The notes under the pieces: model-generated | The model's database searches: none | The model's input: the letters and a program-made list of their open reading frames with translations, nothing else | Told to the model about the DNA's origin: nothing | NCBI GenBank assembly: GCA_036125855.1 | Contig: JAYZTT010000009.1 | Coordinates: forward strand, 7,194-71,193 | From: Planctomycetota bacterium | GTDB lineage: Bacteria > Planctomycetota > UBA8108 > UBA1146 | Length of the DNA: 64,000 bases | Direction of reading: 5' to 3' | Program-made: the position numbers and the translations under genes | Part shown: positions 6,014 through 20,838 of the stretch, in pieces | How the letters are laid out: each line of letters opens with the position of its first letter | Numbering within the stretch: the first letter of the stretch is position 1

Positions 6014-6634
6014 CTAGGGGGCAACCTGACCACACAAGATGGAGCTGATCTGCAGTGCCAGCTTGCCCAGCATCGCCCCTTCTAGCTCCTTTTCCGAGCT
6101 CTCAAAGGAGATAAAGATGCGCCCGGATTCCGGGTTTTCAGGCACCCTGATATCGAATTCTCGGCGCAGTACCGGGCGCCCCGCTGGCACCAGAAACAGC
6201 TCCCAGTAGCCCTGGATGCGCCCCTGTAGCATCCCGGGGCTGCGCGGATCCTGGAAGGTGATCCGATCGATCCGACCGGTCAACACATGGGATGCCCGCG
6301 CCTCGGTGCCGATCTCCCCCCACGGCACCTGATCGTCGTCGGTGTGGAACACCCGATCTGCAATCACCTGATCAGACACCACTGCAACCGCAGCACATTC
6401 ACTGGAAACCTGGAGGCGAATCGCCCGGGCCAGGGCGATCCCGGTCGGTGATTCGTAATGCCAGCGCAACACGCCACTGTTCGCTGGCCTGTGCTGAAAT
6501 GGAATGACCAGCAGCTGCGAGTGCCCGAGGTCATATTCTGGATCGAGACGTTGCTCGGGAGTACTGGAACATCCCGCGAGACAAACCAGCATCGCGAATC
6601 CACTGACCAGAATCCATCGGTTGGTAGCGCACAT
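6014..6634 (-). CDS. Hypothetical lipoprotein
   Basis: Start at MCATNRW (6634) gives a signal peptide with LAGC lipobox. Confidence 0.65.
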   Translation of the reverse strand: MCATNRWILVSGFAMLVCLAGCSSTPEQRLDPEYDLGHSQLLVIPFQHRPANSGVLRWHYESPTGIALARAIRLQVSSECAAVAVVSDQVIADRVFHTDDDQVPWGEIGTEARASHVLTGRIDRITFQDPRSPGMLQGRIQGYWELFLVPAGRPVLRREFDIRVPENPESGRIFISFESSEKELEGAMLGKLALQISSILCGQVAP

Positions 6635-6992
6635 CGGAAGAACCCTTTCCCGGTAGCTCAATGGCAGTAACAGCACCGCTGAATGATACGGCCTGAGGAG
6701 TGTCAGGAGCAGCAAAGAAAAGGCCCGACCCGGACAAATTCCAGCAACTCCAGAAGACAGGAGGCTACCTGCGACTCGCTGTAGATGGAACGTCATCGAC
6801 CATTCAGGCACCACAATCACCCCTCAACGGCTCTCTCTTGCCGTGGGTCCGACGGTCGCTCGAGGCAACCCATCGAAACTTCCTGGATTCCATTGCGCCA
6901 TTCCAGTACGGTGGCTCGGTGCACTTTGATTGTCCTGCCTGATTCTCTCGCTTCGTGTAATTTCCTGCAGTTCCCCGCAACTCCCAGAATGA

Positions 6993-8963
6993 GTGGTGGT
7001 CGTCATGTTTCCTGTAATTCACGCACTTTCCAACGTACGGGTCCTGATCCTGGTCTTCCTGCTGGTCGCCATGTCGGACTGGATCATGGAAAATATCGAT
7101 GTGATCCATGCCCAGGATCCTCCTGCCGACGCTCCGGCGGCTGGACAGGATCCTCCTGCGGATGCTCCTGCGGAGGGAAACGATCTGCTCGATGATGATC
7201 TGCTCGGTGATGATCTGCTCGGTGATGATCTGCTCGATGGATCGCCCGAGGACTCCGAGAGCGATGCGGATCCCTCCCCATCGACGGAGGAGATTCATGC
7301 GGAAATCTTCGCTGCGAGCAATTTTCCTTCTGCGGATGAATGCGCGCTCTGTCACCCCGTCCAGTACAAGCAATGGTCCGTCTCCCAGCATGCGTATTCA
7401 CAACTGAGCCCGCTGATGATGTCGATGCAAAATGCCATGAACGCCGGCACGAGCAGCACCAATGGTGATTTCTGCCTCCGCTGCCACGCCCCGGTAGGCT
7501 CCGACATGGGGGAGCCGTTCAGTATCTCGAACCTGGAGCGGCATCCTGCTTCGAGAGAGGGGATCACCTGTGTCACTTGCCACCGGATGAGTGCCCCTTA
7601 CCGCAAGGTCTCCGGCCGCCTCGGGATCGACAAGGGAGACATCTTCGACCCGATCAAGGGCCCCCTGGGAAATGATGAACTGAGCCGCATTCTCGACGAT
7701 CCCAGTACCTACAAGGTCAATACGGATCGCGAGGACGTCGGCCGTGCCATCCACGGCGAGGTCGAGAAGTTCCCGGAGATGTCAGATCCCACCTTCTGCG
7801 GCAGTTGCCACGAGGTGTTCGCTCCAAACGGACTGAGGGTCCATGAACTGCTCAGCGAATACCGAAATTCTCCTGCTGCCGAGCAAGGGATCACCTGTAA
7901 CGACTGCCACATGGGCCAGGAACAGGGAATCCCGAGCGGCTACGATGTCGGACCCGCAGCGGAGGTCGATGGAATTCCAACGGCCGATCGGAAACTGACC
8001 AATCACTTCTTTGCCGGTCCAGATTACTCGCTGATCCATCCGGGAATCTTCCCCGTCAACCGGGATGCCAACAAACTCAAGTCACTCTCCGAGTGGCTTC
8101 TGTTCGACGTCGAGGCCGGCTGGGGTACCCTGGAATTCGAGGACAACTGTCCAGAGGATTACGAGTTCCCCGAAGCGTGGACATCCATCGATGACAGGGA
8201 GGCTGCCCGGGCCATCATCGAGGAGCAACTGGGGTTGCTCGACTGGGCCAAGGAGCAACGAATCGCCGTCCTGAAGCGAGGTTTCGGACTGTCTGACATC
8301 CGGGTGACCTCCGCCAGCGCCGACGGCATCGACCTCGAGCTCGATGTCAAGAATTTGACGTCCGGCCACAACCTGCCGACCGGGTTTGATGCCGAGAGGC
8401 TTTTTGTCATCCAGATCGAGGTCAGGGATTCCCGTGGAGAGCTGGTGTTCGTCTCCGGGGATCGGGATCCCAATGGAGATGTCAGGGATAGCTTCTCGCT
8501 CTATGTCCGTAGTGGTGAGGTCGAGCTGGATGAACAGCTGTTCAACCTTCAATCCAAGTTCATGTCGAGAAATATCCGGGGTGGGGACCGAGAGCAGGTA
8601 TTGACCATCAACAGCTCCGTGTCGGCTCTTCCCTTCATCCGGCCCGCTTCGAGGCCCAACAACATCTACGGACATCCGAAGGGGATGAGAAAACACCGGA
8701 GAGGGATCGAGCCACTCGGTCACAGAACCGCTAGCTATCATGTCAGCGGCGAACAGCTCACCGGGCACGGCCCCTACTCTGTCGTTGCTCGTTTCATTTC
8801 CCAGGCGGTTCCCGTCAATCTGATCCATCAGACGATGCATGTCGGATTCGATTACGGCATCTCACCACGAGAACTGGCAAAGCGCCTCGTCGATGGTGCG
8901 GTGGTGGTGGCGGAAAAAACCACGGAAGTGATGGTTCCACAGGGCAAAGGTGATGGATCATGA
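6993..8963 (+). CDS. Pentaheme c-type cytochrome (c554/c552-like core with C-terminal beta-rich domain)
   Basis: Five CxxCH motifs (CALCH, CLRCH, CVTCH, CGSCH, CNDCH); N-terminal hydrophobic export segment; acidic repeat linker. Confidence 0.9.
   Translation: MVVVMFPVIHALSNVRVLILVFLLVAMSDWIMENIDVIHAQDPPADAPAAGQDPPADAPAEGNDLLDDDLLGDDLLGDDLLDGSPEDSESDADPSPSTEEIHAEIFAASNFPSADECALCHPVQYKQWSVSQHAYSQLSPLMMSMQNAMNAGTSSTNGDFCLRCHAPVGSDMGEPFSISNLERHPASREGITCVTCHRMSAPYRKVSGRLGIDKGDIFDPIKGPLGNDELSRILDDPSTYKVNTDREDVGRAIHGEVEKFPEMSDPTFCGSCHEVFAPNGLRVHELLSEYRNSPAAEQGITCNDCHMGQEQGIPSGYDVGPAAEVDGIPTADRKLTNHFFAGPDYSLIHPGIFPVNRDANKLKSLSEWLLFDVEAGWGTLEFEDNCPEDYEFPEAWTSIDDREAARAIIEEQLGLLDWAKEQRIAVLKRGFGLSDIRVTSASADGIDLELDVKNLTSGHNLPTGFDAERLFVIQIEVRDSRGELVFVSGDRDPNGDVRDSFSLYVRSGEVELDEQLFNLQSKFMSRNIRGGDREQVLTINSSVSALPFIRPASRPNNIYGHPKGMRKHRRGIEPLGHRTASYHVSGEQLTGHGPYSVVARFISQAVPVNLIHQTMHVGFDYGISPRELAKRLVDGAVVVAEKTTEVMVPQGKGDGS
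7113..7241 (+). repeat. Coding tandem repeats: 2 x 33 bp (QDPPADAPAxG) then 4 x 15 bp (DLL[D/G][D/G])
   Basis: caggatcctcctgc units at 7113 and 7146; gatctgctcg units at 7182, 7197, 7212, 7227. Confidence 0.9.
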
Positions 8964-10405
8964 ATCCATTCTCGAACGCCACATCGAGGCCAACATCTTC
9001 TCGACTCGTCGTCAGCACCACAGCTCTGAAGCAAGGGGCGATGCTGTGCATCGTCCTGATCCTGTTCAGCCAGCCGTGCTGGTCGCAGCAGGGGGAAAGC
9101 CCCAGCAGGCTACCGGATCAGCCAATTCCCCTGATTCCCGAGGATCAGATCAAGCCGACGCAACCGCTCCTGGAACTGGGGCCTGGATTTCTCGGAACCG
9201 GTCGACTGGGAAGAGGATTCGACATCCCAACGGGAGCCGTGTGGCGACCATCGTTGTGGGTCTATGGCAACCTGAGAAGCGGCATCAACGTGATCGATCC
9301 TGCCGGAAGCGATAACCGCACCATCGAGTGGGCCAATCGCATCGATCTGTTTGCAAACTTGCAGTTCACCGGTACCGAGCGAATTCTCCTGGGTTTGCAA
9401 CCGTTACAGGATCAGGGCCAGTTCACCCGCTACACCTTCGAACCGGAAGACAGCAAGGGCTGGTACGACAACACCAACCTCGAACTGACCACTTTTTTCT
9501 TCGAAGGTGAACTGACAGAGCTGTTCCCCGGCCTCGATCCAGCGGGAGACAAGAAACTGGATTACGGCTTCAGCATCGGCAGATGGACCGTCGACCTGCA
9601 GGATGGAATGCTGGTCAACGACAACGTGGATGCCTTTGGAGTCACTCGCTTCATCCCCTTTCCCGGGGCCTCCGGCATGCGATTGACGATGCTCTACGGC
9701 TGGGGCGAGCTCCATCGAGATGACAACAAATTATCGTTCGGTTCGAGGTTGTTCGGAATCTCGACCGAGACCGATACATACGCCCGGACGATAGACGCGG
9801 ACCTGATCGCTGTAACCGCGCCCAACGACCAGGGAGGCGATGGGATCTATGCTGGCCTCGGTTCCTCGCAACGCATCAAGAAGTGGGGGCGCACCTTCAA
9901 TACCACGATCCGCTGCTGTGTATCAGCGGCTACCGAACAGGACAATGATCAGGTCAGCGACGGCGTGCTGCTCTTTGCAGAAGCATCGACGACCCCATCG
10001 GGAACCGATGATAACGCCTATGGCACCCTGTTCCTCGGGATCGATGACTTCGCCTCGGCAGGACGAGCACCGGCCAAGGGAGGCCCCCTGGGAAAGGCGG
10101 GAATCCTCTTTGCGGCAGCGGGACTCGGTAGTTTCAAACCGGCTCTGGGTAACCGGGCGGATCGCTCCTTCGGCGGCGCCCTCGGCTACCAGTGGGTCCT
10201 CGATGGCGGTGAACAGAACTTCATCGTGGAGGTGGGCGGTCGAACACCCACCGAGGGGGACGATCCAGCTTCGGGAGCGATCGGAGTTCGCTTCCAGGAA
10301 AAGTTATCGCGCAGGGTCATGATCCAGTGTGACGGCTACACCAAGATGGATGAAGGCGGCGCAACCAACAATGGGATACGAACCGAATTTCTGGTTAGGT
10401 TTTGA
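8960..10405 (+). CDS. Putative outer-membrane beta-barrel (porin-like) protein
   Basis: Signal peptide; many alternating amphipathic strands rich in Gly and aromatics; C-terminal EFLVRF with terminal Phe; ATGA overlap with upstream cytochrome. Confidence 0.7.
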   Translation: MNPFSNATSRPTSSRLVVSTTALKQGAMLCIVLILFSQPCWSQQGESPSRLPDQPIPLIPEDQIKPTQPLLELGPGFLGTGRLGRGFDIPTGAVWRPSLWVYGNLRSGINVIDPAGSDNRTIEWANRIDLFANLQFTGTERILLGLQPLQDQGQFTRYTFEPEDSKGWYDNTNLELTTFFFEGELTELFPGLDPAGDKKLDYGFSIGRWTVDLQDGMLVNDNVDAFGVTRFIPFPGASGMRLTMLYGWGELHRDDNKLSFGSRLFGISTETDTYARTIDADLIAVTAPNDQGGDGIYAGLGSSQRIKKWGRTFNTTIRCCVSAATEQDNDQVSDGVLLFAEASTTPSGTDDNAYGTLFLGIDDFASAGRAPAKGGPLGKAGILFAAAGLGSFKPALGNRADRSFGGALGYQWVLDGGEQNFIVEVGGRTPTEGDDPASGAIGVRFQEKLSRRVMIQCDGYTKMDEGGATNNGIRTEFLVRF

Positions 10406-10408
10406 CGA

Positions 10409-11695
10409 TTGAACCCGACCGAAGTCATCTTCTGGATCGGCTCAGGAATCGTATTCTTGATCCTGATCGAGCTGATTCTCGCCGTGGCCCGGCACTTCAA
10501 TACGGCTCAGCGTGCGGCTCGAAGCATCGAGACCTCGAGCGCGAACCTGCAGCGAGAACTTGAGGAAGTCCCTGATCCTCCCGACCTCGCCACGTCCAGG
10601 CGAGCTTGGCGAGGATATCGGCGATTCATCCTGGAAAAAAAGGTCGAGGAGGCCAGAGACATCTGCTCCTTCTACCTCTCTCCGATAGACATGGAGCCGT
10701 TACCGACCTACAAACCGGGTCAACATCTCGGATTCCAGCTGCGCATCCCGGGCAGGTTGCGTCCTACCGTACGCAACTATTCCCTCTCCACCGCACCCGG
10801 CAACCCCAACCGCTACAAGATCACTGTGAAACAGCTGACAGCTCCACCAGAGAAACCGGATGCTCCACCGGGGCGAGGTTCCACATTCATGCACGAGAGC
10901 TTGTCGGCAGGAAACCTGGTGGAGGTGAGTTGCCCATCCGGAAAGTTCATCCTCGACCGAGAAGATTCGCGACCGGCTGTATTTGTCGCCGGTGGAATCG
11001 GTGTCACTCCACTGATGAGCATGATTGAGAGCATCTGTAACGAGAACATCGAACGCAGATGTTTTTTCATCCATGCGGTCCGAAACCGATCCGAACATGC
11101 ATTTCATGATCAGCTTCAGCAGATCGCGGAAGATCGAAGCAACATCGATCTTCATGTTTTCTACAGTCATCCAGAACAAGAAGACGATGATCTGATCTGC
11201 TCGAAACCCACATACCACTCCGGGTTTCTCGATGTTGAATCGCTCAACAAGATTACAGGTGGAGGGGATCTCCAGTACTACATCTGTGGACCTCCTCCGA
11301 TGATGTCCGCTCTGGTCCCGGCACTGGAATTAGCCGGTGTGAGTCCTGACGACCTCCTGACGGAAGCATTTGGACCGGCGTCCACCAGCAAGAAGGTCAA
11401 CACCCTCTCGACAGAGTCTGGTGACAACCTGGAGGAGACAGAGAGGTTCAAGGTATTTCTGGAGACCAGCAATCGAACCCTCAAATGGGATGGCAGTAGT
11501 TCCCTCCTGGAACTGGTAGAAGCCTCTGGAATCTTCATTGACAGTAGCTGCAGATCAGGAAATTGTGGGACCTGCGAGGCTCGCCTGCTCGACGGCCCCG
11601 TTCAATATGAAGAAGAACCGGGAGTGGATATCGCCTCTGGACATTGCCTGACATGCGTCGCCAGACCTGCTGGTGATGTAATTCTAGAACTCTGA
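10409..11695 (+). CDS. Membrane-anchored FAD/NAD(P)H oxidoreductase with C-terminal 2Fe-2S ferredoxin
   Basis: N-terminal TM helix; RNYSLS FAD motif; VAGGIGVTP; YICGPPPMM; EAFG; CRSGNCGTC...C ferredoxin motif. Confidence 0.92.
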   Translation: MNPTEVIFWIGSGIVFLILIELILAVARHFNTAQRAARSIETSSANLQRELEEVPDPPDLATSRRAWRGYRRFILEKKVEEARDICSFYLSPIDMEPLPTYKPGQHLGFQLRIPGRLRPTVRNYSLSTAPGNPNRYKITVKQLTAPPEKPDAPPGRGSTFMHESLSAGNLVEVSCPSGKFILDREDSRPAVFVAGGIGVTPLMSMIESICNENIERRCFFIHAVRNRSEHAFHDQLQQIAEDRSNIDLHVFYSHPEQEDDDLICSKPTYHSGFLDVESLNKITGGGDLQYYICGPPPMMSALVPALELAGVSPDDLLTEAFGPASTSKKVNTLSTESGDNLEETERFKVFLETSNRTLKWDGSSSLLELVEASGIFIDSSCRSGNCGTCEARLLDGPVQYEEEPGVDIASGHCLTCVARPAGDVILEL

Positions 11696-11714
11696 TATAC
11701 CAGAGCCAGATTCA

Positions 11715-12773
11715 ATGAATGGGAAACAGGGCATGCATAGTAAACATCTCTTGTTGTTCTTGCTGTCGATCGCTGTGACCGGTTGGGCCCTGGCTCTCCC
11801 TTCAGTCGATGACTCTGAACAGGTATTGCCAACCGGACCTGGCTTCGATCCGAAAGAAGTGATGGGGCCGGCTGATTGTATCGAATGCCACAAGCACTCC
11901 GGCAATATCTGGGAAAATACTCCTCACCATGAATCGATCACCGGTGTTCACAGGAGCAAAGAAGGCCAGGCCATCGCCAAGAAGATGAAAATCAAACGAA
12001 TCACCAGGGAGAGCCTGTGCATCGATTGCCACGGCACTGCACAACACTCCGGGGAAAAGACTTCATTGATATCCAACGGGATCTCCTGCGAGTCGTGTCA
12101 TGGTGCAGCAGCAAACTGGATGAAACGACACGGTGAATTCAGTGGCAAGGAAGAGGGACAGGAAACCGCTGAGGAGATCGCAGCACGCTGGAAGGAAGTG
12201 GAGGCGGCAGGAATGCTGCGTCCATCGATGGTTCTGGAAATCGCCAGAAATTGCGTCAGTTGTCATGTTGTTCCCCATGAAGAACTGGTCAATACCGGCG
12301 GACATTCCTCGGGAAGCGATTTTGAACTGCTCTCATGGAGTCAGGGCATGATCCGTCATAACAACTTTTATTCGAAGGGTAAGGAAAACAAGCCGGCACC
12401 CATCGAGAAACAGAGGCTATTCCACATCGTCGGCATCCTGGCAGAGATGGAACTTGTACTGAAAGCGGTTTCCACTGCCACGGCAACGGGCACCTATGCA
12501 GTCAAGAACGCAAGAAGATTCATGCTGTTGAAGGAAAAGCTCGAGGCGGTGAACGAGGCGATCGACAATCCGCAGATCAAGGAGGCAATGGCTGCCATCG
12601 GTGATCTGAAGATGAGCCTCAAAAACCAACCGGCGATCGGACAGGCCGCCGATCAGATCACCGCTTCCTTGAACGCATTCGCAGTTCTGAGTGATGGCAG
12701 CGACCTCGAAGGTGTCGATCCACTTCTTGTCGATGCAAAGAACTACAGGGGCGGCAACCCCGAACCAAAATAG
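11715..12773 (+). CDS. Tetraheme cytochrome c554-family protein
   Basis: Signal peptide; CIECH, CIDCH, GISCESCHG, CVSCH. Confidence 0.9.
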   Translation: MNGKQGMHSKHLLLFLLSIAVTGWALALPSVDDSEQVLPTGPGFDPKEVMGPADCIECHKHSGNIWENTPHHESITGVHRSKEGQAIAKKMKIKRITRESLCIDCHGTAQHSGEKTSLISNGISCESCHGAAANWMKRHGEFSGKEEGQETAEEIAARWKEVEAAGMLRPSMVLEIARNCVSCHVVPHEELVNTGGHSSGSDFELLSWSQGMIRHNNFYSKGKENKPAPIEKQRLFHIVGILAEMELVLKAVSTATATGTYAVKNARRFMLLKEKLEAVNEAIDNPQIKEAMAAIGDLKMSLKNQPAIGQAADQITASLNAFAVLSDGSDLEGVDPLLVDAKNYRGGNPEPK

Positions 12774-12797
12774 AACTTCATGAACGAGTGACCCATC

Positions 12798-14489
12798 ATG
12801 GATGATCAGGAACTCAGAATAGATCGACCGAAACGCTGGGACCAACCGTTCGGCGAGGACCTGCTCTCCGACGATTTCGTCGACAGAGCCCTGACCGAGA
12901 CTGTCCTGTCACTGGCCTGCAATGATTTCCAGCCCGGAGGGGCTTCGATCTCCGAAATCCTTCGTAACGATGCCCGCAAGGTTGATTATCAACCGGGTGA
13001 AATTCTCATCCGCAGGGGTGACTACGGTGGTTCCGTGTTTTTCGGCCTGTCAGGTTCGACCCACGTCTTGACCGATCCTGCCGGAGAAGAATTACTGCAA
13101 ACCAGAAAGATGCCTGGCAAGCGAACCTGGTGGCAAGCGCTCTCCCAGTTGTGGCAAAACTCGCAGTTCACCGAATCCAGACACCTGGCAGGCACGGACA
13201 TTCATTCCTACGATACAGAAGAAGTGCTCAAGCGATCACGTACCATTCCCTGCGATCTGGATCAGTTTATCAAGGACTTCAATTCGGTTGAGATTCCCAA
13301 TGGCAGGTCAATCGGTGAGATCGCAGCGCTCAGAAGATCTCCGAGAAGTGCTACCGTGTTCTCTGCATCTGAATCGGTCCTTCTTGAACTGCGCTGGCAG
13401 GCGATCCGTGATATCTGCAGAAAATCGCGGATGTTCAGGGAATATCTGGAGGAAGAGATTCGTACCAGATCGCCGGGCAACCTGTTCGCCAATCTACCGC
13501 TATTCGACGCGATTCCTGAAGAAGACCGGGCAAAACTGTTGCATGTCATCCAGTTCGAACGACAGGGCAACGAGAACTGGAATCAAGGGCTTCGGATTAC
13601 CCTGGAAAACCGAGAAGAAATCCTTTCCCAGGAAACCCTTGTCGTGAAGGCTGGTTGGAGGCTCGACGGCATCTTCGTGATGCTCAACGGGTTCGCACGA
13701 ATTTCCACGAACAGCCACGGTGTGACCGATACCGTCGATTATCTGCGTCCAGGGGATGTCTTCGGACTGGAGGAATTACTCGAGGCCATCGAATCCGGTG
13801 GTACCCCTTACGCTTCCCGCAGCATGCACTGCATCGGCACCACCGATCTGTTACTGATTTCCACCCCGGCAATCCAGAACTACATACTTCCCCACGTCAA
13901 GAAAGAAGATCTTCTCCGCAATTTCAGCTGGAGAGGTGGGAAAATGGAAGTCTCCAAGGGGCTGCTCGATTTTCTGGTCAATCACAGAACCATCAATGGC
14001 AACCAGACGATGATCATCGATCTCGATCGCTGCACCGATTGTGACGATTGTGTCAAGGCTTGCGCCATTACCCATGACGGCAATCCCAGATTCATTCGTG
14101 AAGGACACAGGTATGCCCAGTTGATGGTAGCCTCGGCTTGCATGCACTGCTGTGATCCCGTTTGTCTCATCGGGTGTCCAACGGGTTCCATCCACCGGGA
14201 GCCAGCCAGCGGAAACGTGATCATTCATGATGAGAGTTGCATCGGCTGTGCAACATGCGTCGAGGCGTGCCCCTACGACAACATCCGTACCGTCGAGATC
14301 AAGGATTCCAGCGGCCGGCCTCTCATCGACTCGAACTCGGGGAAACCGATCCTCCGAGCAACAAAATGCGACCTCTGCATCGATCAGCCGTCGGGGCCCG
14401 CCTGTGTCAACTCATGCCCTCACGATGCTCTGCATCGCGTTGACTTCGGAGAGCATGATCTCAGTGCTCCGCTGTGGAAAAGGTCCTGA
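12798..14489 (+). CDS. Cyclic nucleotide-binding domain protein fused to a DmsB/NrfC-type 4x[4Fe-4S] domain
   Basis: GEIAALRRSPRSATV phosphate-binding cassette; second degenerate cNMP domain (YLRPGDVFG); CTDCDDCVKAC, CMHCCDPVCLIGCP, CIGCATCVEACP, CDLC...PACVNSCP. Confidence 0.92.
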   Translation: MDDQELRIDRPKRWDQPFGEDLLSDDFVDRALTETVLSLACNDFQPGGASISEILRNDARKVDYQPGEILIRRGDYGGSVFFGLSGSTHVLTDPAGEELLQTRKMPGKRTWWQALSQLWQNSQFTESRHLAGTDIHSYDTEEVLKRSRTIPCDLDQFIKDFNSVEIPNGRSIGEIAALRRSPRSATVFSASESVLLELRWQAIRDICRKSRMFREYLEEEIRTRSPGNLFANLPLFDAIPEEDRAKLLHVIQFERQGNENWNQGLRITLENREEILSQETLVVKAGWRLDGIFVMLNGFARISTNSHGVTDTVDYLRPGDVFGLEELLEAIESGGTPYASRSMHCIGTTDLLLISTPAIQNYILPHVKKEDLLRNFSWRGGKMEVSKGLLDFLVNHRTINGNQTMIIDLDRCTDCDDCVKACAITHDGNPRFIREGHRYAQLMVASACMHCCDPVCLIGCPTGSIHREPASGNVIIHDESCIGCATCVEACPYDNIRTVEIKDSSGRPLIDSNSGKPILRATKCDLCIDQPSGPACVNSCPHDALHRVDFGEHDLSAPLWKRS

Positions 14490-15316
14490 TGAGAAACCTC
14501 AGAGCCCCTTCCTCCTCGATCTTCGTCGCAATCATTCTGGTTTTCATCTTCTTCAGATATTGCCTGCACATCACTGATCAATCCCTCGGTGATCTCGCGA
14601 AAACAAGTGGGTGGTTCCTGCTGGCCAGTTTCCTGCTCCTCTGCCTGTATGGCATTCGCAAGAAGTTCCCCTTCCTGCCGCTGGGAAAAACATCGACGTG
14701 GTTATTACTTCACCTGACCACCGGATTTCTCAGTGTTTATTTGTTCCTGGAACACACGGGTTTTCAAATCCCGACAGGGATCTTTGATCTCATTCTTGGC
14801 CTGGGATACTGGATCATCCTGCTCAGCGGAGTCGCTGGCTGGATTCTGATGAGATCGATCCCGATCCACCTGCGTGATTCGATGCATCTACTGCCAGGAA
14901 GGATTGCTGAAGAACGGTCACAGCTGATCCACCAGGCGGATGAAGAGATCAAGAACTGGAAACCGGATTCCACCGATCTCGGATATCAGGATGCATATCT
15001 CACGGTTCTGCGGCCATTTCTATTCCGGAGCCCGGGCCTTCTTCCCCGTGGCTCGAAGGAAAATCACTACCTGTCTCAGGAGTTTGCTGCTCAGTACGCC
15101 AGGTGTATCAACATCGTGTATCTCCAACCCAATAGTACCGAGGACAAGATCCATCAGCTGATTCTGCGCAAGGCGATACTGGATCGACAACTGCGTCTTC
15201 ATCGATGGATGCGAGGATGGATGCTGATTCATCTTCCCCTCACCGGAGCGATGGTGATGATGATCACCTTGCATGTGGTGGTGGTTCATGGCTTTGCGGC
15301 TGGATCGGCGCGCTGA
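14489..15316 (+). CDS. Integral membrane protein with intramembrane His residues (possible heme b carrier)
   Basis: About five TM segments; LLLHL, FLEH, LIHLP, TLHV; TGATG overlaps with both neighbours. Confidence 0.75.
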   Translation: MRNLRAPSSSIFVAIILVFIFFRYCLHITDQSLGDLAKTSGWFLLASFLLLCLYGIRKKFPFLPLGKTSTWLLLHLTTGFLSVYLFLEHTGFQIPTGIFDLILGLGYWIILLSGVAGWILMRSIPIHLRDSMHLLPGRIAEERSQLIHQADEEIKNWKPDSTDLGYQDAYLTVLRPFLFRSPGLLPRGSKENHYLSQEFAAQYARCINIVYLQPNSTEDKIHQLILRKAILDRQLRLHRWMRGWMLIHLPLTGAMVMMITLHVVVVHGFAAGSAR

Positions 15317-17268
15317 TGAAACGGAAGCAAAGCCCCTTCGATGCCAAGTCTGTGAAATACCTGCGCCCTGATCAACCCTATCAATGCGGACTGAACAACC
15401 TTCGTTGTGATGCTGGACCCACCGCCGATGGCAAGTGCTCCCGGCCCGATTCTCCCTGCACCCCGGTCGCCAGCGAAGGGCTGATCCGAAAACGTATCTT
15501 TCGAAGAGTGACGGTGCTGGCCCTTGGACTGAGTCTGCTCGCGCTGGCCGCAGATGACATTGCAGTCTTCGATCCGGGTACACATCGGTCATTTCATGCA
15601 CATCTCGATTGCTCCAGTTGCCATGCCCCACTGCAGTTGACTTCATTGACCTCCCTGCAACGTGGCTTGTGGGGCAGTGGAAGCCCACACGCATCGATGA
15701 AGTGCCTCAAGTGTCACGATATGGGAGAATTCGGAGATGATCCTCATTCGGTGTCCCCGGAGTACCTGCGTTTCCTCACCGATGATCGGTCATTGACGAG
15801 CAATCCGCTCGAGGATGTGTCCTGTGGTCAATGCCACCTGGAACACCGGATCCAGGATGAAATGGTGCATCTCAATGATGTGCGGTGTCAATCGTGTCAC
15901 CAGCAACGCTTTGCATCCTTTGATGATGGGCATCCGGAATTCAACAGTACCTACGGACAACCTGAACGGGCGATTGCATTCGATCATCGAGACCATGCGA
16001 GTAAGCACTTCAACGAGTTTCCTCAACATGCCCCTCAAACGTGCGACGATTGCCACAGCCTGGCACCTGATCGAAGCCGCATGATCTTGAAGCCATTTGC
16101 CGAATCCTGCGCACCCTGTCACAGCGATTCCATCAGTGGACACGCTGCCACCGGCAAACAGAAAGGAATCGAGTTCCTGTCGATTCCCTCCTTCGACCTC
16201 GAATCCCTCTCTCAGGCGGACAAGGATATCAAACCCTGGCCCGATATCGGATCCGACTTCCCCACAGCCTGGACTCTGCGCTGGCTCCGGGACCGTCTCG
16301 GCGGTGATTCGGATGTTGAACTGCTCTCGGGTGTCGAACTGTACGATCTGGAAGATCAATCGGAGCCGATCCTGGCTGCCTCGAAACGTGTGGCTCTGCG
16401 ATTCAAGGATCGACTGCAGAAAACTCTCGAATCGGACCTCGAGAGTTTCGTCAACTCCATCGTTTCCGGTTCCTCGACTCCGGGTCCTGACCTCGAGCAG
16501 ATCTCGCTGCTCTCGGGTCAACTACCCCGTTCCATCCTCGAGCAGGCATCGACACGCTGGTTCACGCCGGTGACGGAGAGCTCGGATTCAACGGAACTAC
16601 CAGAGCAGAGCAACTCGGCCAGCGAACAAGACGTTGATCTGAGCCTGCTGGAAGACGATCTGCTCGGCACCGAAGAGGAGGACGACCTCTCCCGGATGGA
16701 AGCCGATGATGCGAGCTCCGAGCCAACCGATCCCGACGACATCGATCTCGAGCTGTGGGCCAGTGCCGGGGGCTGGTACTTTGAACCTCCCTCAATCCGC
16801 TATCGCCCGGTTCAACATGCCGATCCGTTCATCAAAGCGTGGGTCAATCTGGAAGTGATGTCGACCATCGAAGACCCCGATTCAGAGTCCATCATCGAGC
16901 AGGTCTTCGGTCCCCTGGCAGCGGGAAACTGTGCCTCCTGCCACATCGGGATCAAGCGTGAGGAGGCCACGGCTCACTGGTCTCCGACATCGATGCGGCC
17001 TGAAACCTTTCCCCAGCCAACTCACTTCTCCCACGGCCCACATATCCTGCCGGGGTCCAGTGTCACTTGCCTCAATTGCCATCAACTGCTCGACGACAAC
17101 CAGCTGTCCAATGACTGGAAACCGATCACCAGGAGCAGTTGCACCTCATGCCATGGGCAAGAGGTTCAATCCAACTGCTCCACCTGCCATGACTATCATG
17201 TCGGGCCTCGAACTCGTCTGATCAATGCGGTCGACATCGACGGGCTGATTCAACCGCAAGAAGATTAG
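15316..17268 (+). CDS. Decaheme cytochrome c3-like protein, membrane anchored
   Basis: Ten CxxCH motifs (CSSCH, CLKCH, CGQCH, CQSCH, CDDCH, CAPCH, CASCH, CLNCH, CTSCH, CSTCH); FDHxxH and FSHxxH motifs; start at MKRKQ via TGATG overlap. Confidence 0.9.
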   Translation: MKRKQSPFDAKSVKYLRPDQPYQCGLNNLRCDAGPTADGKCSRPDSPCTPVASEGLIRKRIFRRVTVLALGLSLLALAADDIAVFDPGTHRSFHAHLDCSSCHAPLQLTSLTSLQRGLWGSGSPHASMKCLKCHDMGEFGDDPHSVSPEYLRFLTDDRSLTSNPLEDVSCGQCHLEHRIQDEMVHLNDVRCQSCHQQRFASFDDGHPEFNSTYGQPERAIAFDHRDHASKHFNEFPQHAPQTCDDCHSLAPDRSRMILKPFAESCAPCHSDSISGHAATGKQKGIEFLSIPSFDLESLSQADKDIKPWPDIGSDFPTAWTLRWLRDRLGGDSDVELLSGVELYDLEDQSEPILAASKRVALRFKDRLQKTLESDLESFVNSIVSGSSTPGPDLEQISLLSGQLPRSILEQASTRWFTPVTESSDSTELPEQSNSASEQDVDLSLLEDDLLGTEEEDDLSRMEADDASSEPTDPDDIDLELWASAGGWYFEPPSIRYRPVQHADPFIKAWVNLEVMSTIEDPDSESIIEQVFGPLAAGNCASCHIGIKREEATAHWSPTSMRPETFPQPTHFSHGPHILPGSSVTCLNCHQLLDDNQLSNDWKPITRSSCTSCHGQEVQSNCSTCHDYHVGPRTRLINAVDIDGLIQPQED

Positions 17269-17296
17269 ATTCCGGGGGAAGCAGATAAACTGCCGA

Positions 17297-20296
17297 TCAG
17301 GAAGCGGGACGGCGATCGCGCCGGCCCATCCGTTCGAGCGCTGCATCGATATCCGAAACGGACCAGCCGCCTCCCTTGGGCAGATTCTGGACCCGATATC
17401 CGCGCGGGCCCCAGGTCAGCTTGACCGACCGGGAGGGGGGAAGATCGGAGTTCCCTTCGCGGAACACCTGCACCGGTTGATGGTCACCACCGGTCAACTC
17501 GACGCTGCGATTGCGCGCCAGAACCCGTGCTTGCTCGGCCAGAATCCGGTAGGGGCCTCCCCGTAAATCGGTCGCACCCCAGGCCAGCGCCTCATGGGGT
17601 CTCAACGAGCCACTCTCTTCATCCTCGCGCAGCACCAGCAACAGCTCATCGGCACGCAATTCAAAGCTGCCGGTTTTCTGGTCACTGGTAGGCTCCAGCT
17701 GAATGACCGCACTCAGTACCGAAGAAAGCAGCACTTCCAGGCGCTCTCGGGCCTCCTTGCCCGGGGCGGTTGACCGTACCACCACCACTTCGCGGGCCAC
17801 CACCTCGTCGCGCGGCTCCTGACCGCGGACGAAGGTCTGTAACCCCTGGCCATCGGGGGAGGAGAGAGTCAAACGCTGATACTGATGATCCCAGTGGCAA
17901 TTTTGACCCCGGAACTCGATGCCCCCCTGCTCCTGGAGAAGACGTACCGACCCCTGCGCTTCCACTTCCGACAGACGGATTTGCCGGGCTCGAATGTCGA
18001 GCTTTGCATCGATTCGATCCGCTCTCAATTTCCAGGACAACAATTCGTCAGCATCCGGTTCGGCAGCGAGCCCTTCGATCTGCGGTCCCTTGGCCAGGTA
18101 CAGCAGTGCCCGGGCATCACCGACCAGTTCGACGGTCCCGGCGATGCGATCAAGGGAGATGGTGTCGGCCAGAACCAGATCGGGTTCCTCTGAACCGGAG
18201 AAGATCTGAACCTGCTGCAAACCGGGCCCCTGAAAACGGAACTGCTGACTCTGCGCGTTCCACAACAGCTCCTGGCCAGAAGCCCGAATCGTCCCGTCAT
18301 CAATCTGGACAGGTCGATCCTGATCTCCCAGGGCCCGCACTCCCTCGATGTTCCCCAGTGGATAATTCGAGGCGGAAGCGACCTCCTCCTCGGCGCTCTC
18401 AGAGGCCTCCTCACGAGCCAGAGAAACGACCAGAGATGAGCAATCGATGACCAGGGGAGGATCCTCCTCAGGGGCTCCTGGACGCTTCAGGGTGCCCTTT
18501 ACCGCCCCTTCTCCCATCGCCTGGCCTTCGACCATGGAGAGCCTCAAACGATCCGCCTCGAGCACCGCACGGTTACCGATCGACAGCTGCTGACGCCCTT
18601 CTCCCTCGATCCGGATGACGGCATCGGCGCCACGCCACTCAAGACGATTCCCGGTCAGCTGGACCGGTTCGTTGCCACGGATCGCCAGGCTCAAGGGCGT
18701 TGCGTCCGCGGTGGCTTCGAGCTGCTTGAGACGCTGCTTTCCATCCCAGAACAGGGTCAACTGTTCAGCCTCCAGCTCGCCGCTGGAATCCTCGCCGAGC
18801 CAGCGTGGCGAAGTGACCGATGGTCCTCGTGGCAATTCATGGAGCTCGGCTCCGACCCGCCCGCGAAAGACCAGTCGGGTCGGATCGACCGAGAGAGCCG
18901 CGGTATTGGCCTCGACCCGGTTCTTTCCATCGGTGAACAGAGCACGGCGACCGGAGCTGGAAAACACTTCCAGTTCCTTCTCGACGGCGCGCCAGCGCAA
19001 CTCATCTCCGATGATGGTCGCGCCTCCCTCACCGATTTCATTGATCGACACCGACTCGCCGTCGCGACCTCGCGCTGCCAGGGTCTTCAACCGACCGTCG
19101 GAAAATTCGAACTGGGCGGTCTCGGCGGTCACCCGCCAGTCCCCCTCGATGGGAACCGGCAGTGACGAGTTTTCGCCGGGCGAAGTTGGTTCCCCCTTGA
19201 GGGTGCCGGTCACCGATCCCTCCACGATGCAGCGCGAAGAACCGAGCTCGATCCGTGCCTCATCCGCCTGGAAGGTGCCCATTTCGCTGAATATGGCAAT
19301 TCCGCCGCTGAGCCGTACCTCCCGATCTCCATCTTTCCAGTCGAGCTGCTCCCCCTGCACACGAATGCCATCGCCGAGGTAGATGGTGATCGGATTCTCA
19401 CGCCTTTGAGAATGAATTCGCAACAATCGACGACTGATCGGTTCGAGATGCAGATCGAGAAAATCGGCCGCGATGTGCCGGGCAGGAACTGCCGCCAGCG
19501 GATCGAGTTGCGCTTCCACTTCCGATTCGAAGATGCGCACCCCTCCATCAAAGCGAGCTCCCTGCTCACTTCCAGCCAGGGTGATGGGGCCCTCGCAGAT
19601 GATTCTCACCTGCCTCGGCGTGGCAACTTCAGGGTCGGTAGTCTCACCCGGTGCTCCGGTGTCGTCGGAAACGACGTCTGCGGTCATCATCGCGACGATG
19701 ACGGGAGGAGCAAAACTCAACTCCTGCAGACCGGAAGAGGATCCGATGGAACCGGTAAGGCCGTTGGCGCTACGCAACTTCATGGCAGGCCATGCCACCT
19801 TCACCGGTGATTCACCTTCGATGCGAATGTCCTCGCCATCGGCCCAGCGGATCGACAGGTCACTGGTTTCCATCTGCGGGGCACCACCGGCTCCCTGGCC
19901 GCGCAACTCTCCGATGACTCGCGCCTCCTCACCGCTTGGATCCGTGATGATTTTCTCCGCCTCGAACAGGATCTGATCGACCGGCTCGGTGCGCCCGTCG
20001 GCATAAACCGGCAATTCGATGGTGGCATCGATCAGGGCCCGCTGGCTCACCAGATTCTCGGGAGAAAGCACCACGCCCGATGACAGATCCATCTCGCCAC
20101 GCAGGGTGAATCGAAGTCGCCCCAGGGTGTAATCGTAGGAGTGGTGGGTGACTCGGTTCTGTTTCACCTCGGGGAAGCGATCGGGTTCGGTCGAGCTGGA
20201 GGGGTCAATCTCGGGGCTGCCGAACTGTCCCGTCAGCAGCAGGAATGCGACGAGGCCGACCGAAAAAACACCCAGAAAGAAGGAGAGTCGCTTCAA
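17297..20296 (-). CDS. Large N-anchored beta-rich protein, putative extended LptC/LptA (OstA-like jellyroll repeats)
   Basis: TTG start overlapping the kdsC stop with AGGAG ribosome-binding site; single N-terminal TM; repeated short strand motifs (GEQLDW, GDELRW, GNRLEW, GQELLW); position after kdsC. Confidence 0.6.
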   Translation of the reverse strand: MKRLSFFLGVFSVGLVAFLLLTGQFGSPEIDPSSSTEPDRFPEVKQNRVTHHSYDYTLGRLRFTLRGEMDLSSGVVLSPENLVSQRALIDATIELPVYADGRTEPVDQILFEAEKIITDPSGEEARVIGELRGQGAGGAPQMETSDLSIRWADGEDIRIEGESPVKVAWPAMKLRSANGLTGSIGSSSGLQELSFAPPVIVAMMTADVVSDDTGAPGETTDPEVATPRQVRIICEGPITLAGSEQGARFDGGVRIFESEVEAQLDPLAAVPARHIAADFLDLHLEPISRRLLRIHSQRRENPITIYLGDGIRVQGEQLDWKDGDREVRLSGGIAIFSEMGTFQADEARIELGSSRCIVEGSVTGTLKGEPTSPGENSSLPVPIEGDWRVTAETAQFEFSDGRLKTLAARGRDGESVSINEIGEGGATIIGDELRWRAVEKELEVFSSSGRRALFTDGKNRVEANTAALSVDPTRLVFRGRVGAELHELPRGPSVTSPRWLGEDSSGELEAEQLTLFWDGKQRLKQLEATADATPLSLAIRGNEPVQLTGNRLEWRGADAVIRIEGEGRQQLSIGNRAVLEADRLRLSMVEGQAMGEGAVKGTLKRPGAPEEDPPLVIDCSSLVVSLAREEASESAEEEVASASNYPLGNIEGVRALGDQDRPVQIDDGTIRASGQELLWNAQSQQFRFQGPGLQQVQIFSGSEEPDLVLADTISLDRIAGTVELVGDARALLYLAKGPQIEGLAAEPDADELLSWKLRADRIDAKLDIRARQIRLSEVEAQGSVRLLQEQGGIEFRGQNCHWDHQYQRLTLSSPDGQGLQTFVRGQEPRDEVVAREVVVVRSTAPGKEARERLEVLLSSVLSAVIQLEPTSDQKTGSFELRADELLLVLREDEESGSLRPHEALAWGATDLRGGPYRILAEQARVLARNRSVELTGGDHQPVQVFREGNSDLPPSRSVKLTWGPRGYRVQNLPKGGGWSVSDIDAALERMGRRDRRPAS

Positions 20297-20838
20297 GGTT
20301 TTTCTCCTGCGACCGGCTGCTCGGAGCGCTGCTGCCACAGACCCCGAGCGACCAGGATCCACTCGCAGACCTCGCGAACCGCTCCCTGGCCTCCTGATCG
20401 ACCGGTCACCACGGTCGCCTGCTCGAGAACCTGCGGCCGCGAGTTGGCCACGGCAACCGAGACTCCGACCATCGACATCGGTGGTAGATCGATCAGATCA
20501 TCGCCGACATACACGGTGTTGCGGGCTGCCACGCCGGTGCGCTCCAGGAGCTGTTCGAGACAGGCAGCCTTATCAGCAATTCCCGTGTGAACCTCCTCGA
20601 TCCCCAGCTCGTGGGCACGTTGCCGGGTCACGGTAGATTCGCGACCGGAGATCAGAGCAACGCCAATTCCCGCTTCCAGCAACCAGCGGATTCCGGCCCC
20701 GTCTGGAACGTGAAACTGCTTCCATTCGGTGCCATCGGCACTCATCCACAGCGAGTTATCGGTGAGGACACCATCCACATCGAGCACTAGCAGCTGCGGC
20801 TGGCACACCTGGATCGGGTTCGGGATCTCGGGTTTCAT
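20293..20838 (-). CDS. kdsC: 3-deoxy-D-manno-octulosonate 8-phosphate phosphatase
   Basis: HAD motif DVDGVLTD, FHVPDGAGI, ISGRES, YVGDDLIDLP, GGQGAVREVCE. Confidence 0.93.
   Translation of the reverse strand: MKPEIPNPIQVCQPQLLVLDVDGVLTDNSLWMSADGTEWKQFHVPDGAGIRWLLEAGIGVALISGRESTVTRQRAHELGIEEVHTGIADKAACLEQLLERTGVAARNTVYVGDDLIDLPPMSMVGVSVAVANSRPQVLEQATVVTGRSGGQGAVREVCEWILVARGLWQQRSEQPVAGEKP

Follow-up and report, generated by a model that had tools for sequence, protein, structure and literature searches.

A planctomycete copy of the ptdABCDEFG operon and the predicted junction between its pentaheme cytochrome and barrel proteins

The ptdABCDEFG operon, named after its penta-, tetra- and deca-heme proteins, was introduced in a preprint (bioRxiv 10.1101/2023.11.21.568154) whose available text lists a porin (PtdB), an oxidoreductase of flavin adenine dinucleotide (FAD) and nicotinamide adenine dinucleotide (phosphate) (NAD(P); PtdC), a tetra-heme protein (PtdD), a protein that binds cyclic nucleotide monophosphates (cNMP) and carries 4Fe-4S clusters (PtdE), a ferric-reductase-like membrane protein (PtdF) and a deca-heme protein (PtdG). 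There it was proposed as a porin-cytochrome complex for extracellular electron transfer in Alpha- and Gammaproteobacteria, Nitrospirales and Planctomycetes of saline habitats. High transcription of ptdAB was reported for the seawater of an oxygen-deficient zone, with iron reduction noted at the depth of that transcription. We found a cluster of this kind at positions 6993-17268 of a 64,000-nucleotide stretch from a Planctomycetota bacterium (assembly GCA_036125855.1, contig JAYZTT010000009.1, positions 7,194 to 71,193 of the forward strand), referred to here as the window. Compared with the preprint's description, the window cluster has the same seven genes in the same order, and judged by this content and order it is a planctomycete copy of ptdABCDEFG, a system already named and functionally uncharacterised. 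An earlier note, made from the DNA letters alone, did not recognise the cluster as a characterised system, which overlooked the reading of ptd as a putative porin-cytochrome complex in the 2023/24 preprint. Nothing essential separates the window copy from the operon as described there; it is one more copy. A literature search on the ptd names found no later work beyond this preprint.

By analogy, the closest characterised relative of ptd in logic is the extHIJKLMNOPQS cluster of Geobacter sulfurreducens, in which the porin-like ExtI stands beside the pentaheme ExtKL, together with 12-, 10- and 4-heme cytochromes, a Rieske protein and a cytochrome b (PMC5877670, PMC6148476). ExtKL is equated with MccSep, a periplasmic polysulfide reductase that has a His/Cys-ligated heme and selenocysteine (10.1101/2025.11.18.688581). 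As far as the accessible parts of these papers describe it, ext resembles ptd in placing a porin-like outer-membrane protein next to a pentaheme cytochrome that shares a structural family with PtdA, PtdB and ExtI being likened by description. Its 10- and 4-heme cytochromes, membrane cytochrome b and iron-sulfur protein add to the likeness. In contrast, ExtKL is a selenoenzyme with a His/Cys heme whereas PtdA bears neither mark, and the Ext input is a Rieske protein and cytochrome b whereas that of ptd would be an NAD(P)H reductase, a four-cluster ferredoxin and PtdF. A rhodanese lipoprotein belongs to the Ext set as described, with none in ptd.

MtrCAB and Pcc resemble ptd in combining a periplasmic multiheme cytochrome with an outer-membrane barrel, the ptd complex being a predicted one. 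The MtrB barrel has 26 strands; the ptd barrel appears smaller, with a non-heme loop in its predicted lumen and no extracellular cytochrome encoded beside it. Unlike MtrCAB, ptd does not appear to be fed by a CymA/NapC-type quinol dehydrogenase, and the family models scored far below their cut-offs. The earlier note had also proposed a hidden Markov model comparison with MtrA, and this did not favour a relationship: the DmsE/MtrA family model (TIGR03508, cut-off 192.2 bits) scored PtdA at 30.4 bits and PtdG at 19.1. Given these sub-cut-off scores and the lack of an encoded extracellular cytochrome, ptd is not placed in the MtrCAB class. NADPH oxidases and ferric reductases (NOX, FRE, STEAP) and the Fre-MsrQ pair share with the proposed ptd chain a route from NAD(P)H through flavin to two b hemes held by two His pairs on two helices. 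However, in ptd these parts would be spread over three proteins with an iron-sulfur relay, PtdF has five helices with a cytoplasmic insert of about 100 residues, and the Ferric_reduct family reached it at sub-threshold level only, in 12 of 72 sequences.

Gene layout and conservation of the operon

The open reading frame (ORF) list of the window holds seven co-oriented plus-strand ORFs that abut or overlap across 6993-17268. The first two, ptdA (6993-8963) and ptdB (8960-10405), overlap in the ATGA at 8960-8963, and TGATG at 14487-14491 and at 15314-15318 mark further gene overlaps, which place the likely starts of genes six and seven at 14489 and 15316. Motif counting gave five CxxCH in ptdA, four in ptdD and ten in ptdG, a total of 19. 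The products of genes two and six (ptdB and ptdF) matched no Pfam or NCBIfam family. The earlier note had read the same seven co-oriented genes, overlaps and 19 motifs, all of which were recovered; its domain readings for genes three, four and five agree with the Pfam and NCBIfam matches. Its observation that a quinol dehydrogenase and a molybdopterin subunit are lacking also held, as no such Pfam or NCBIfam match was found in the operon.

We assessed the distribution of the operon by scanning a PtdB profile over a one-genome-per-species collection. PtdB relatives were confirmed in at least 424 of 599 candidate stretches, spanning Planctomycetota, Alpha- and Gammaproteobacteria, Nitrospirales, Verrucomicrobiota, Binatia and other groups, a spread in agreement with the carriers listed in the preprint's available text. 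Among the 80 loci kept for gene-content counts, PtdA adjoined PtdB in 78, the two exceptions being short contigs, and 42 carried all seven genes. When only uncut loci were considered (at least 9 kb on both sides of PtdB; n = 46), 34 were complete and 32 had the A-B-C-D-E-F-G order. A PtdF query gave full-length matches in 14 genomes from three other genera of the same family and in none of five genomes of the organism's own genus. Of 14 loci compared from two sister genera, 12 had all seven genes in order; one of the remaining two was cut by a contig end and the other lacked ptdC. The co-conservation of the gene set, which the earlier note had named as a check, is borne out by these counts, and chance ORFs are ruled out by the synteny.

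The incomplete loci were not uniform. Six of the 46 uncut loci, all from Nitrospirales, held only ptdA, B, D, F and G, with a 163-residue Fer2 protein at the ptdC position. The other six comprised two with A+B+D, two with A+B, one with A+B+D+G and one with A to F. From the gene sets of these 46 loci, PtdA-PtdB(-PtdD) is a constant core and the electron-input module varies. The Nitrospirales loci without ptdC and ptdE are a refinement over the preprint as available, as is the predicted 18-strand porin-class barrel with its PtdA plug. No universal eighth gene emerged when 650 flanking ORFs from the 80 loci were clustered, which returned only lineage-specific neighbours.

The Nitrospirales variant without ptdC and ptdE was noted in eight loci (L079, L081, L082, L085, L091, L094, L099 and L105 in our numbering). 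Seven of the eight have a 156-163-residue protein between ptdB and ptdD, in which a Fer2 domain was seen for L081, and, downstream of ptdG, a P-type ATPase that bears the metal-binding domains YHS and HMBD. In the closest sister genus, a second, tandem ptdA paralogue lies upstream of ptdA (L027, L029, L030, L039 and L041; also L014 and L016-L018); this extra copy is 70-75% identical to the PtdA of the window, where ptdA is single. Three cultured carriers have all seven genes in order, namely Ferruginivarius sediminum WD2A32, Tistlia consotensis USBA 355 and Nisaea nitritireducens DSM 19540 (L043, L050 and L080), which makes the function directly testable. PtdA-PtdB pairs were also encountered on contigs of metagenome-assembled genomes labelled Bacillota and Polaribacter (L046 and L093), unexpected hosts that may reflect binning errors. 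DNA of the window's organism was matched in marine and seawater metagenomes from 11 studies.

PtdA, PtdB and their predicted complex

The ptdA product is a secreted pentaheme cytochrome of 656 residues, laid out as a signal peptide, a tail of acidic (D/E)(D/E)LL repeats, a five-heme domain, an immunoglobulin-like domain with the motif GHxxPTG, and a C-terminal region that holds the predicted barrel plug (about residues 541-578). Among solved proteins, it is significantly similar in sequence only to the pentaheme cytochrome c552 of Thermochromatium tepidum (PDB 5ze8; expectation value (E) 1.7e-11 with the single sequence, 3.1e-16 with the profile). This match takes in all five heme motifs as well as H-x-x-P-T-G in the immunoglobulin-like domain. 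Cytochrome c552 has 435 residues, whereas residues 500-656 of PtdA, including the predicted plug, lie beyond the aligned part. Across 35 PtdA sequences, His133, His254, His338 and His459 were invariant and His102 was at least 90% conserved, so that five spare His match the five hemes. The same 35 sequences held no conserved non-motif Cys, a motif scan found no CxxCK, and the ptdA ORF has no internal in-frame stop codon. Family assignments were weak: the PtdA profile reached MccSep (9wt8) at E 0.58 only, the NCBIfam ExtKL model scored 32.1 bits against a cut-off of 250, and Pfam Cytochrom_C552 (PF02335) scored 17.8 bits against 24.1 over 20 residues only. The Pfam MtrC/MtrF domain was marginal in two of the cytochromes (PtdG 34.1 bits, PtdA 29.3 bits; cut-off 30).

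The acidic repeats behind the PtdA signal peptide lie at 7113-7239 of the window (about residues 41-83). They include a plus-strand 15-nucleotide tandem repeat at 7182-7239 (family D1) that encodes DDLLGDDLLGDDLL, and a related copy lies in ptdG at 16642-16669, PtdG carrying a motif related to the PtdA repeats. Similar acidic repeats were seen behind the signal peptide in PtdA homologues of Planctomycetota, Alphaproteobacteria, Phycisphaerae, Verrucomicrobiota and others, in a region that does not align.

PtdB is 481 residues long, with a signal peptide and a C-terminal Phe that is nearly invariant in the alignment. Each of the 413 homologues from a word-based search was named hypothetical, and none had a Pfam domain. 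The AlphaFold2 model, built on a 57-sequence alignment, was all-beta and read as 18 long strands, with a mean predicted local distance difference test (pLDDT) of 86.8 and a predicted template modelling score of 0.79. Its best Foldseek match was the Campylobacter jejuni major outer membrane protein MOMP (5ldt; E 2e-11, template modelling scores 0.55 and 0.65), and the other top PDB fold matches were Occ/OprD porins (OpdO), chitoporin and AlgE. No MtrB-type barrel was among the fold matches listed. The best-matching porins are 18-stranded, and PtdB is predicted to be an outer-membrane beta-barrel of the 18-strand porin class. The all-beta model and the porin matches uphold the beta-barrel reading that the earlier note had given to 8960-10405.

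We then modelled the complex of PtdA residues 100-656 with PtdB residues 55-481, without hemes. The interaction prediction score from aligned errors (ipSAE) was 0.91, 0.90 and 0.90 in three runs compared to 0.00 for the best of three controls; the mark used for this score, which is the model's own confidence and no measurement, was reached by 58 of 80 solved complexes and 2 of 110 mismatched pairs. The runs had at least 88% of their contacts in common, with a partner pLDDT of at least 89. The PtdB contact residues comprise alternate, lumen-facing positions on nearly every strand, short turns and the N-terminal segment that precedes the barrel. As barrel termini are usually periplasmic, PtdA would cap the periplasmic mouth of PtdB. 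The tightest contacts come from PtdA residues 551-569, a conserved loop without a heme motif in which R550 and P551 are invariant among 35 sequences, with G560, P562 and R566 present in 34 of 35 each, H568 in 31 and K567 in 30. The whole predicted lumen segment, about residues 541-578, contains no CxxCH, and it is this non-heme loop that fills the modelled barrel lumen. The pairing of porin and pentaheme cytochrome suggested earlier is in keeping with this high-scoring prediction. However, the accompanying claim that the chain runs to the surface did not hold up against a barrel resembling 18-strand substrate porins, an operon that encodes no extracellular cytochrome and a loop without heme in the lumen; these findings give no support to a heme wire that extends to the cell surface.

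The proposed electron-input module and the remaining cytochromes

The third gene, ptdC (10409-11695, plus strand, TTG start), encodes a 428-residue reductase that has Pfam matches to FAD_binding_6, NAD_binding_1 and a C-terminal Fer2 domain behind a hydrophobic, anchor-like N-terminus (residues 2-33). Residues 65-326 matched the NCBIfam flavohaemoprotein reductase module at 2.6e-68, below the family cut-off, and the 2Fe-2S ligands Cys381, Cys386, Cys389 and Cys416 were invariant in 50 sequences. The product of ptdE (12798-14489, plus strand) is a cytoplasmic protein of 563 residues with cyclic-nucleotide-binding domains (Pfam cNMP_binding, 7e-20) and a four-cluster ferredoxin domain (Fer4_11, 1.1e-10, 42 bits against a cut-off of 26.2); neither a signal peptide nor a twin-arginine (Tat) motif was visible at its N-terminus. 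Its 16 Cys in four cluster motifs were invariant in 38 of 38 sequences, whereas the preprint, in its available text, gives PtdE two 4Fe-4S clusters. The four Cys groups and the Fer4_11 match place the C-terminal domain with the DmsB/NrfC/HybA-type four-cluster ferredoxins, and all NCBIfam equivalog models scored below cut-off. In the first cNMP domain, the phosphate-binding cassette is conserved (G173 and E174 100%, R183 97%).

The inner-membrane protein PtdF is encoded by ptdF at 14489-15316 on the plus strand (275 residues from ATG 14489; GTG 14474 is also possible). It belongs to a very large, unannotated family, with 4513 representatives at E ≤ 0.001 and 754 at E ≤ 1e-30. Four residues, His75, His89, His248 and His262, were invariant in 72 diverse sequences. 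The model (pLDDT 90.2) is a five-helix membrane protein with a helical insert of about 100 residues, and its His pairs lie 14 residues apart on helices 68-90 and 217-273, an arrangement of two pairs on two transmembrane helices as in two-heme transmembrane cytochromes. On this model PtdF is likely a di-heme b transmembrane relay, and by the positive-inside rule one heme would lie near each membrane face. The nearest Atlas cluster carries the automatic name 'Ferric reductase like'.

The two remaining cytochromes complete the heme inventory. PtdD (ptdD, 11715-12773, plus strand; 352 residues) is a periplasmic tetraheme c554-like cytochrome that matched Pfam Cytochrome_C554 at 1.7e-12 and PDB 1bvb at 1.5e-7, with four CxxCH in 56 of 56 sequences and four invariant non-motif His. 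PtdG (ptdG, 15316-17268, plus strand, in an ORF open from 15205; 650 residues from ATG 15316) is a membrane-anchored decaheme cytochrome with an N-terminal four-Cys segment, one transmembrane-like helix and a ten-heme domain. Ten CxxCH were found in 40 of 40 PtdG sequences together with ten invariant non-motif His, and the search against PDB sequences gave nothing better than E 0.041. Since 5, 4 and 10 conserved spare His accompany the 5, 4 and 10 hemes of PtdA, PtdD and PtdG, and no catalytic-type ligand was found, all 19 c-hemes appear to be bis-His electron-transfer hemes. None of the three cytochromes has a Cys-containing lipobox at its N-terminus, as read from the sequence. The N-terminal segment of PtdG would be cytoplasmic and the ten-heme domain periplasmic. 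Its Cys24, Cys31, Cys41 and Cys48 are 88-90% conserved and could form a metal or cluster site facing PtdE or PtdF. This segment (15316-15500, residues 1-60) precedes the transmembrane helix and is doubled in most homologues, with the pattern W-x-C-G ... G-x-P-C ... G-x-C ... C-x-P.

Electron flow, competing readings and genomic setting

The computed elements, namely gene content, conservation, cofactor motifs, barrel fold and the predicted PtdA-PtdB interface, can be assembled into a route that leads outward. PtdC, anchored in the inner membrane and facing the cytoplasm, would oxidise NAD(P)H at its FAD and pass single electrons to its 2Fe-2S cluster. The four-cluster ferredoxin PtdE would carry them from PtdC to PtdF, probably gated by its cNMP domains, and PtdF would ferry them over the inner membrane by means of two b-type hemes, with one invariant His pair holding each heme. 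Through the membrane-anchored decaheme PtdG and the soluble tetraheme PtdD, the electrons would then cross the periplasm to PtdA, docked at the periplasmic mouth of PtdB with its conserved Arg/Pro-rich loop pushed into the lumen. As all c-hemes seem to be bis-His, the last step would probably be the outer-sphere reduction of an oxidant arriving at the PtdA-PtdB junction, whether through the barrel or at it, with a metal chelate, a redox shuttle or oxygen as candidate acceptors. Outward flow would move negative charge to the positive side of the membrane and would therefore dispose of reducing power without conserving energy. We consider it an even call whether ptd is such an outward, NAD(P)H-fed exporter that uses its 19 hemes and ends at the PtdA-PtdB junction. 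For the chain proposed in the earlier note, the cofactor set remains plausible (FAD, 2Fe-2S, four 4Fe-4S motifs, two membrane hemes and 19 c-hemes), and the order of carriers and the direction are matters that we infer.

A broader version of this reading is tentative and, in our judgment, rather doubtful: ptd may be a widespread, cyclic-nucleotide-gated and NAD(P)H-fed two-membrane electron exporter, a counterpart of NADPH oxidases and ferric reductases extended by 19 c-hemes, whose bis-His pentaheme cap and Arg/Pro-rich plug in an 18-strand barrel would constitute a new porin-cytochrome junction. If the exporter reading is true, many marine bacteria, aerobes included, would reduce an external oxidant without the quinone pool, examples being chelated Fe(III), Mn(III), iodate and O2. 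Export across both membranes would also represent an unrecognised path by which metals, iodine or oxygen undergo redox reactions in seawater and a second architecture for bringing electrons to the outer membrane.

Several points weigh against the outward NAD(P)H-fed reading. The carrier order, the topologies and the direction of flow are deduced from the parts, and the preprint, in its available text, calls the function of ptd 'completely unknown'. The six uncut Nitrospirales loci lack both ptdC and ptdE and one sister-genus locus lacks ptdC, so NAD(P)H is not a universal donor; five further uncut loci have only ptdAB, ptdABD or ptdABDG. No RNA dataset was among those listed for the organism. 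The modelled complex omits PtdA residues 1-99 and the hemes, and its interface was not enriched in conserved residues (PtdB odds ratio 1.64, p = 0.06; PtdA odds ratio 0.80, p = 0.41). In the second cNMP domain of the window PtdE, residues 343-346 (13824-13835) contain Met-His-Cys in place of the family's Leu-Arg-Ala (Arg 95%, Ala 92%), and nucleotide binding by this domain may be impaired. The window PtdF had no Pfam match at E ≤ 0.01 and no Foldseek match in PDB at E ≤ 0.001, and across its family the Pfam matches were all sub-threshold (DUF4405 in 43 of 72 sequences, Ni_hydr_CYTB in 21, besides Ferric_reduct). Its best VIA match, at Z 8.8, is in the noise range for helical bundles and has unrelated helical proteins alongside; a designed di-heme bundle, hydrogenase cytochrome b, cytochrome b561 and STEAP4 scored Z 7.2-8.5, also within noise. 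Naming the family of PtdF by fold was ruled out, as VIA mixes unrelated helical proteins with heme-binding bundles, and with no significant fold or family match its binding of heme b is putative.

The same evidence bears on three competing explanations. A true MtrCAB-like conduit, with hemes that cross the outer membrane within PtdB and, at the cell surface, donate electrons to insoluble Fe(III) or Mn(IV) minerals or to electrodes, was the reading of the earlier note and is the analogy favoured in the preprint's available text, which also places iron reduction at the depth where ptdAB is transcribed (bioRxiv 10.1101/2023.11.21.568154). It would fit the persistent adjacency of cytochrome and barrel, their predicted tight binding with part of the cytochrome inside the barrel, and the apparent bis-His ligation of all hemes, as expected of electron-transfer cytochromes. 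However, the lumen segment has no CxxCH, the operon encodes neither a lipoprotein nor an extracellular cytochrome, the DmsE/MtrA scores fall far short, and the top fold matches of PtdB are 18-stranded porins with no MtrB-type barrel among those listed, all of which makes such a conduit unlikely.

We regard as similarly improbable that PtdA is a periplasmic enzyme for a small nitrogen or sulfur oxyanion, like NrfA or MccSep/ExtKL, with PtdB as its substrate porin and catalysis confined to the periplasm. The grouping of PtdA with T. tepidum c552, which two papers, as far as available, place structurally beside ExtKL/MccSep, speaks for this, as do the porin-like ExtI that adjoins Geobacter ExtKL and is needed for selenite and tellurite reduction, the periplasmic polysulfide reductase activity ascribed to MccSep (10.1101/2025.11.18.688581), and an Arg-rich loop in the barrel that could select anions. 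The His/Cys heme and the selenocysteine or Cys site of MccSep are absent from PtdA, however, with no conserved non-motif Cys and no in-frame stop, and there is no CxxCK. The sub-threshold Cytochrom_C552 score, the E of 0.58 to MccSep and the five spare His for five hemes point the same way. Electrons might instead run inward, from an extracellular or periplasmic donor such as Fe(II), sulfide or nitrite to ferredoxin or NAD(P)+, as chains of this kind are reversible in principle and the operon occurs in nitrite-oxidising Nitrospirales with a small 2Fe-2S protein replacing PtdC. On thermodynamic grounds such flow would oppose the membrane potential and, with donors of this kind, would also run up the redox gradient to NAD(P)+; the operon encodes no coupling module such as a proton pump or a Rieske/bc complex, so we favour the outward direction and consider an inward chain very unlikely.

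The operon stands among unrelated housekeeping genes (parA/parB, tatA, scpA, fmt and rsmB). On the left, the intergenic interval 6821-6992 separates ptdA from the minus-strand orf 6014-6820, and on the right, a 28-bp gap (17269-17296) separates ptdG from the convergent orf 17297-20362. In two genomes of the same genus, homologues of these two flanking orfs are direct neighbours about 180 bp apart (L107 6620-6798; L108 4829-5011), and the parB-to-fmt block is otherwise collinear. The PtdB profile had no match in five same-genus genomes (80-94% complete). Because the flanking genes adjoin and PtdB was not found in these relatives, the site shows a clean difference in the presence or absence of the 10.3-kb ptd operon. 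Neither mobile genes nor terminal direct or inverted repeats beyond short, chance-like matches were found at the operon ends. The identities do not show a recent transfer from the sister genus g5, as two housekeeping proteins are 64-66% identical to their g5 counterparts and the Ptd proteins 52-86%.

Regulatory signals were sought upstream of ptdA with a crude scan for Fur boxes, in which all 71 loci had at least 6 mismatches to a 19-nucleotide consensus. The best site beat matched random windows in at most one locus among the matches listed (L084, fraction 0.02) and in none of eight gammaproteobacterial loci; this crude scan of 71 loci lent no support to iron regulation of ptd. Promoter and terminator scans were at or below shuffle level (1 vs 4.7 and 10 vs 8.4). 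Genes for a cytochrome c assembly protein and for a single heme-copper oxidase are present in the genome, a setting that fits the outward reading. It was noted that the guanine-plus-cytosine fraction is 0.51-0.55 across 11-16 kb, from the 3' part of ptdC to the 5' part of ptdG, compared to 0.57-0.62 in the flanks and ptdA-ptdB. The minus-strand orf 17297-20362 encodes a protein of 1021 residues that matched no Pfam family and shares 72-78% identity with its homologues in the two same-genus genomes.

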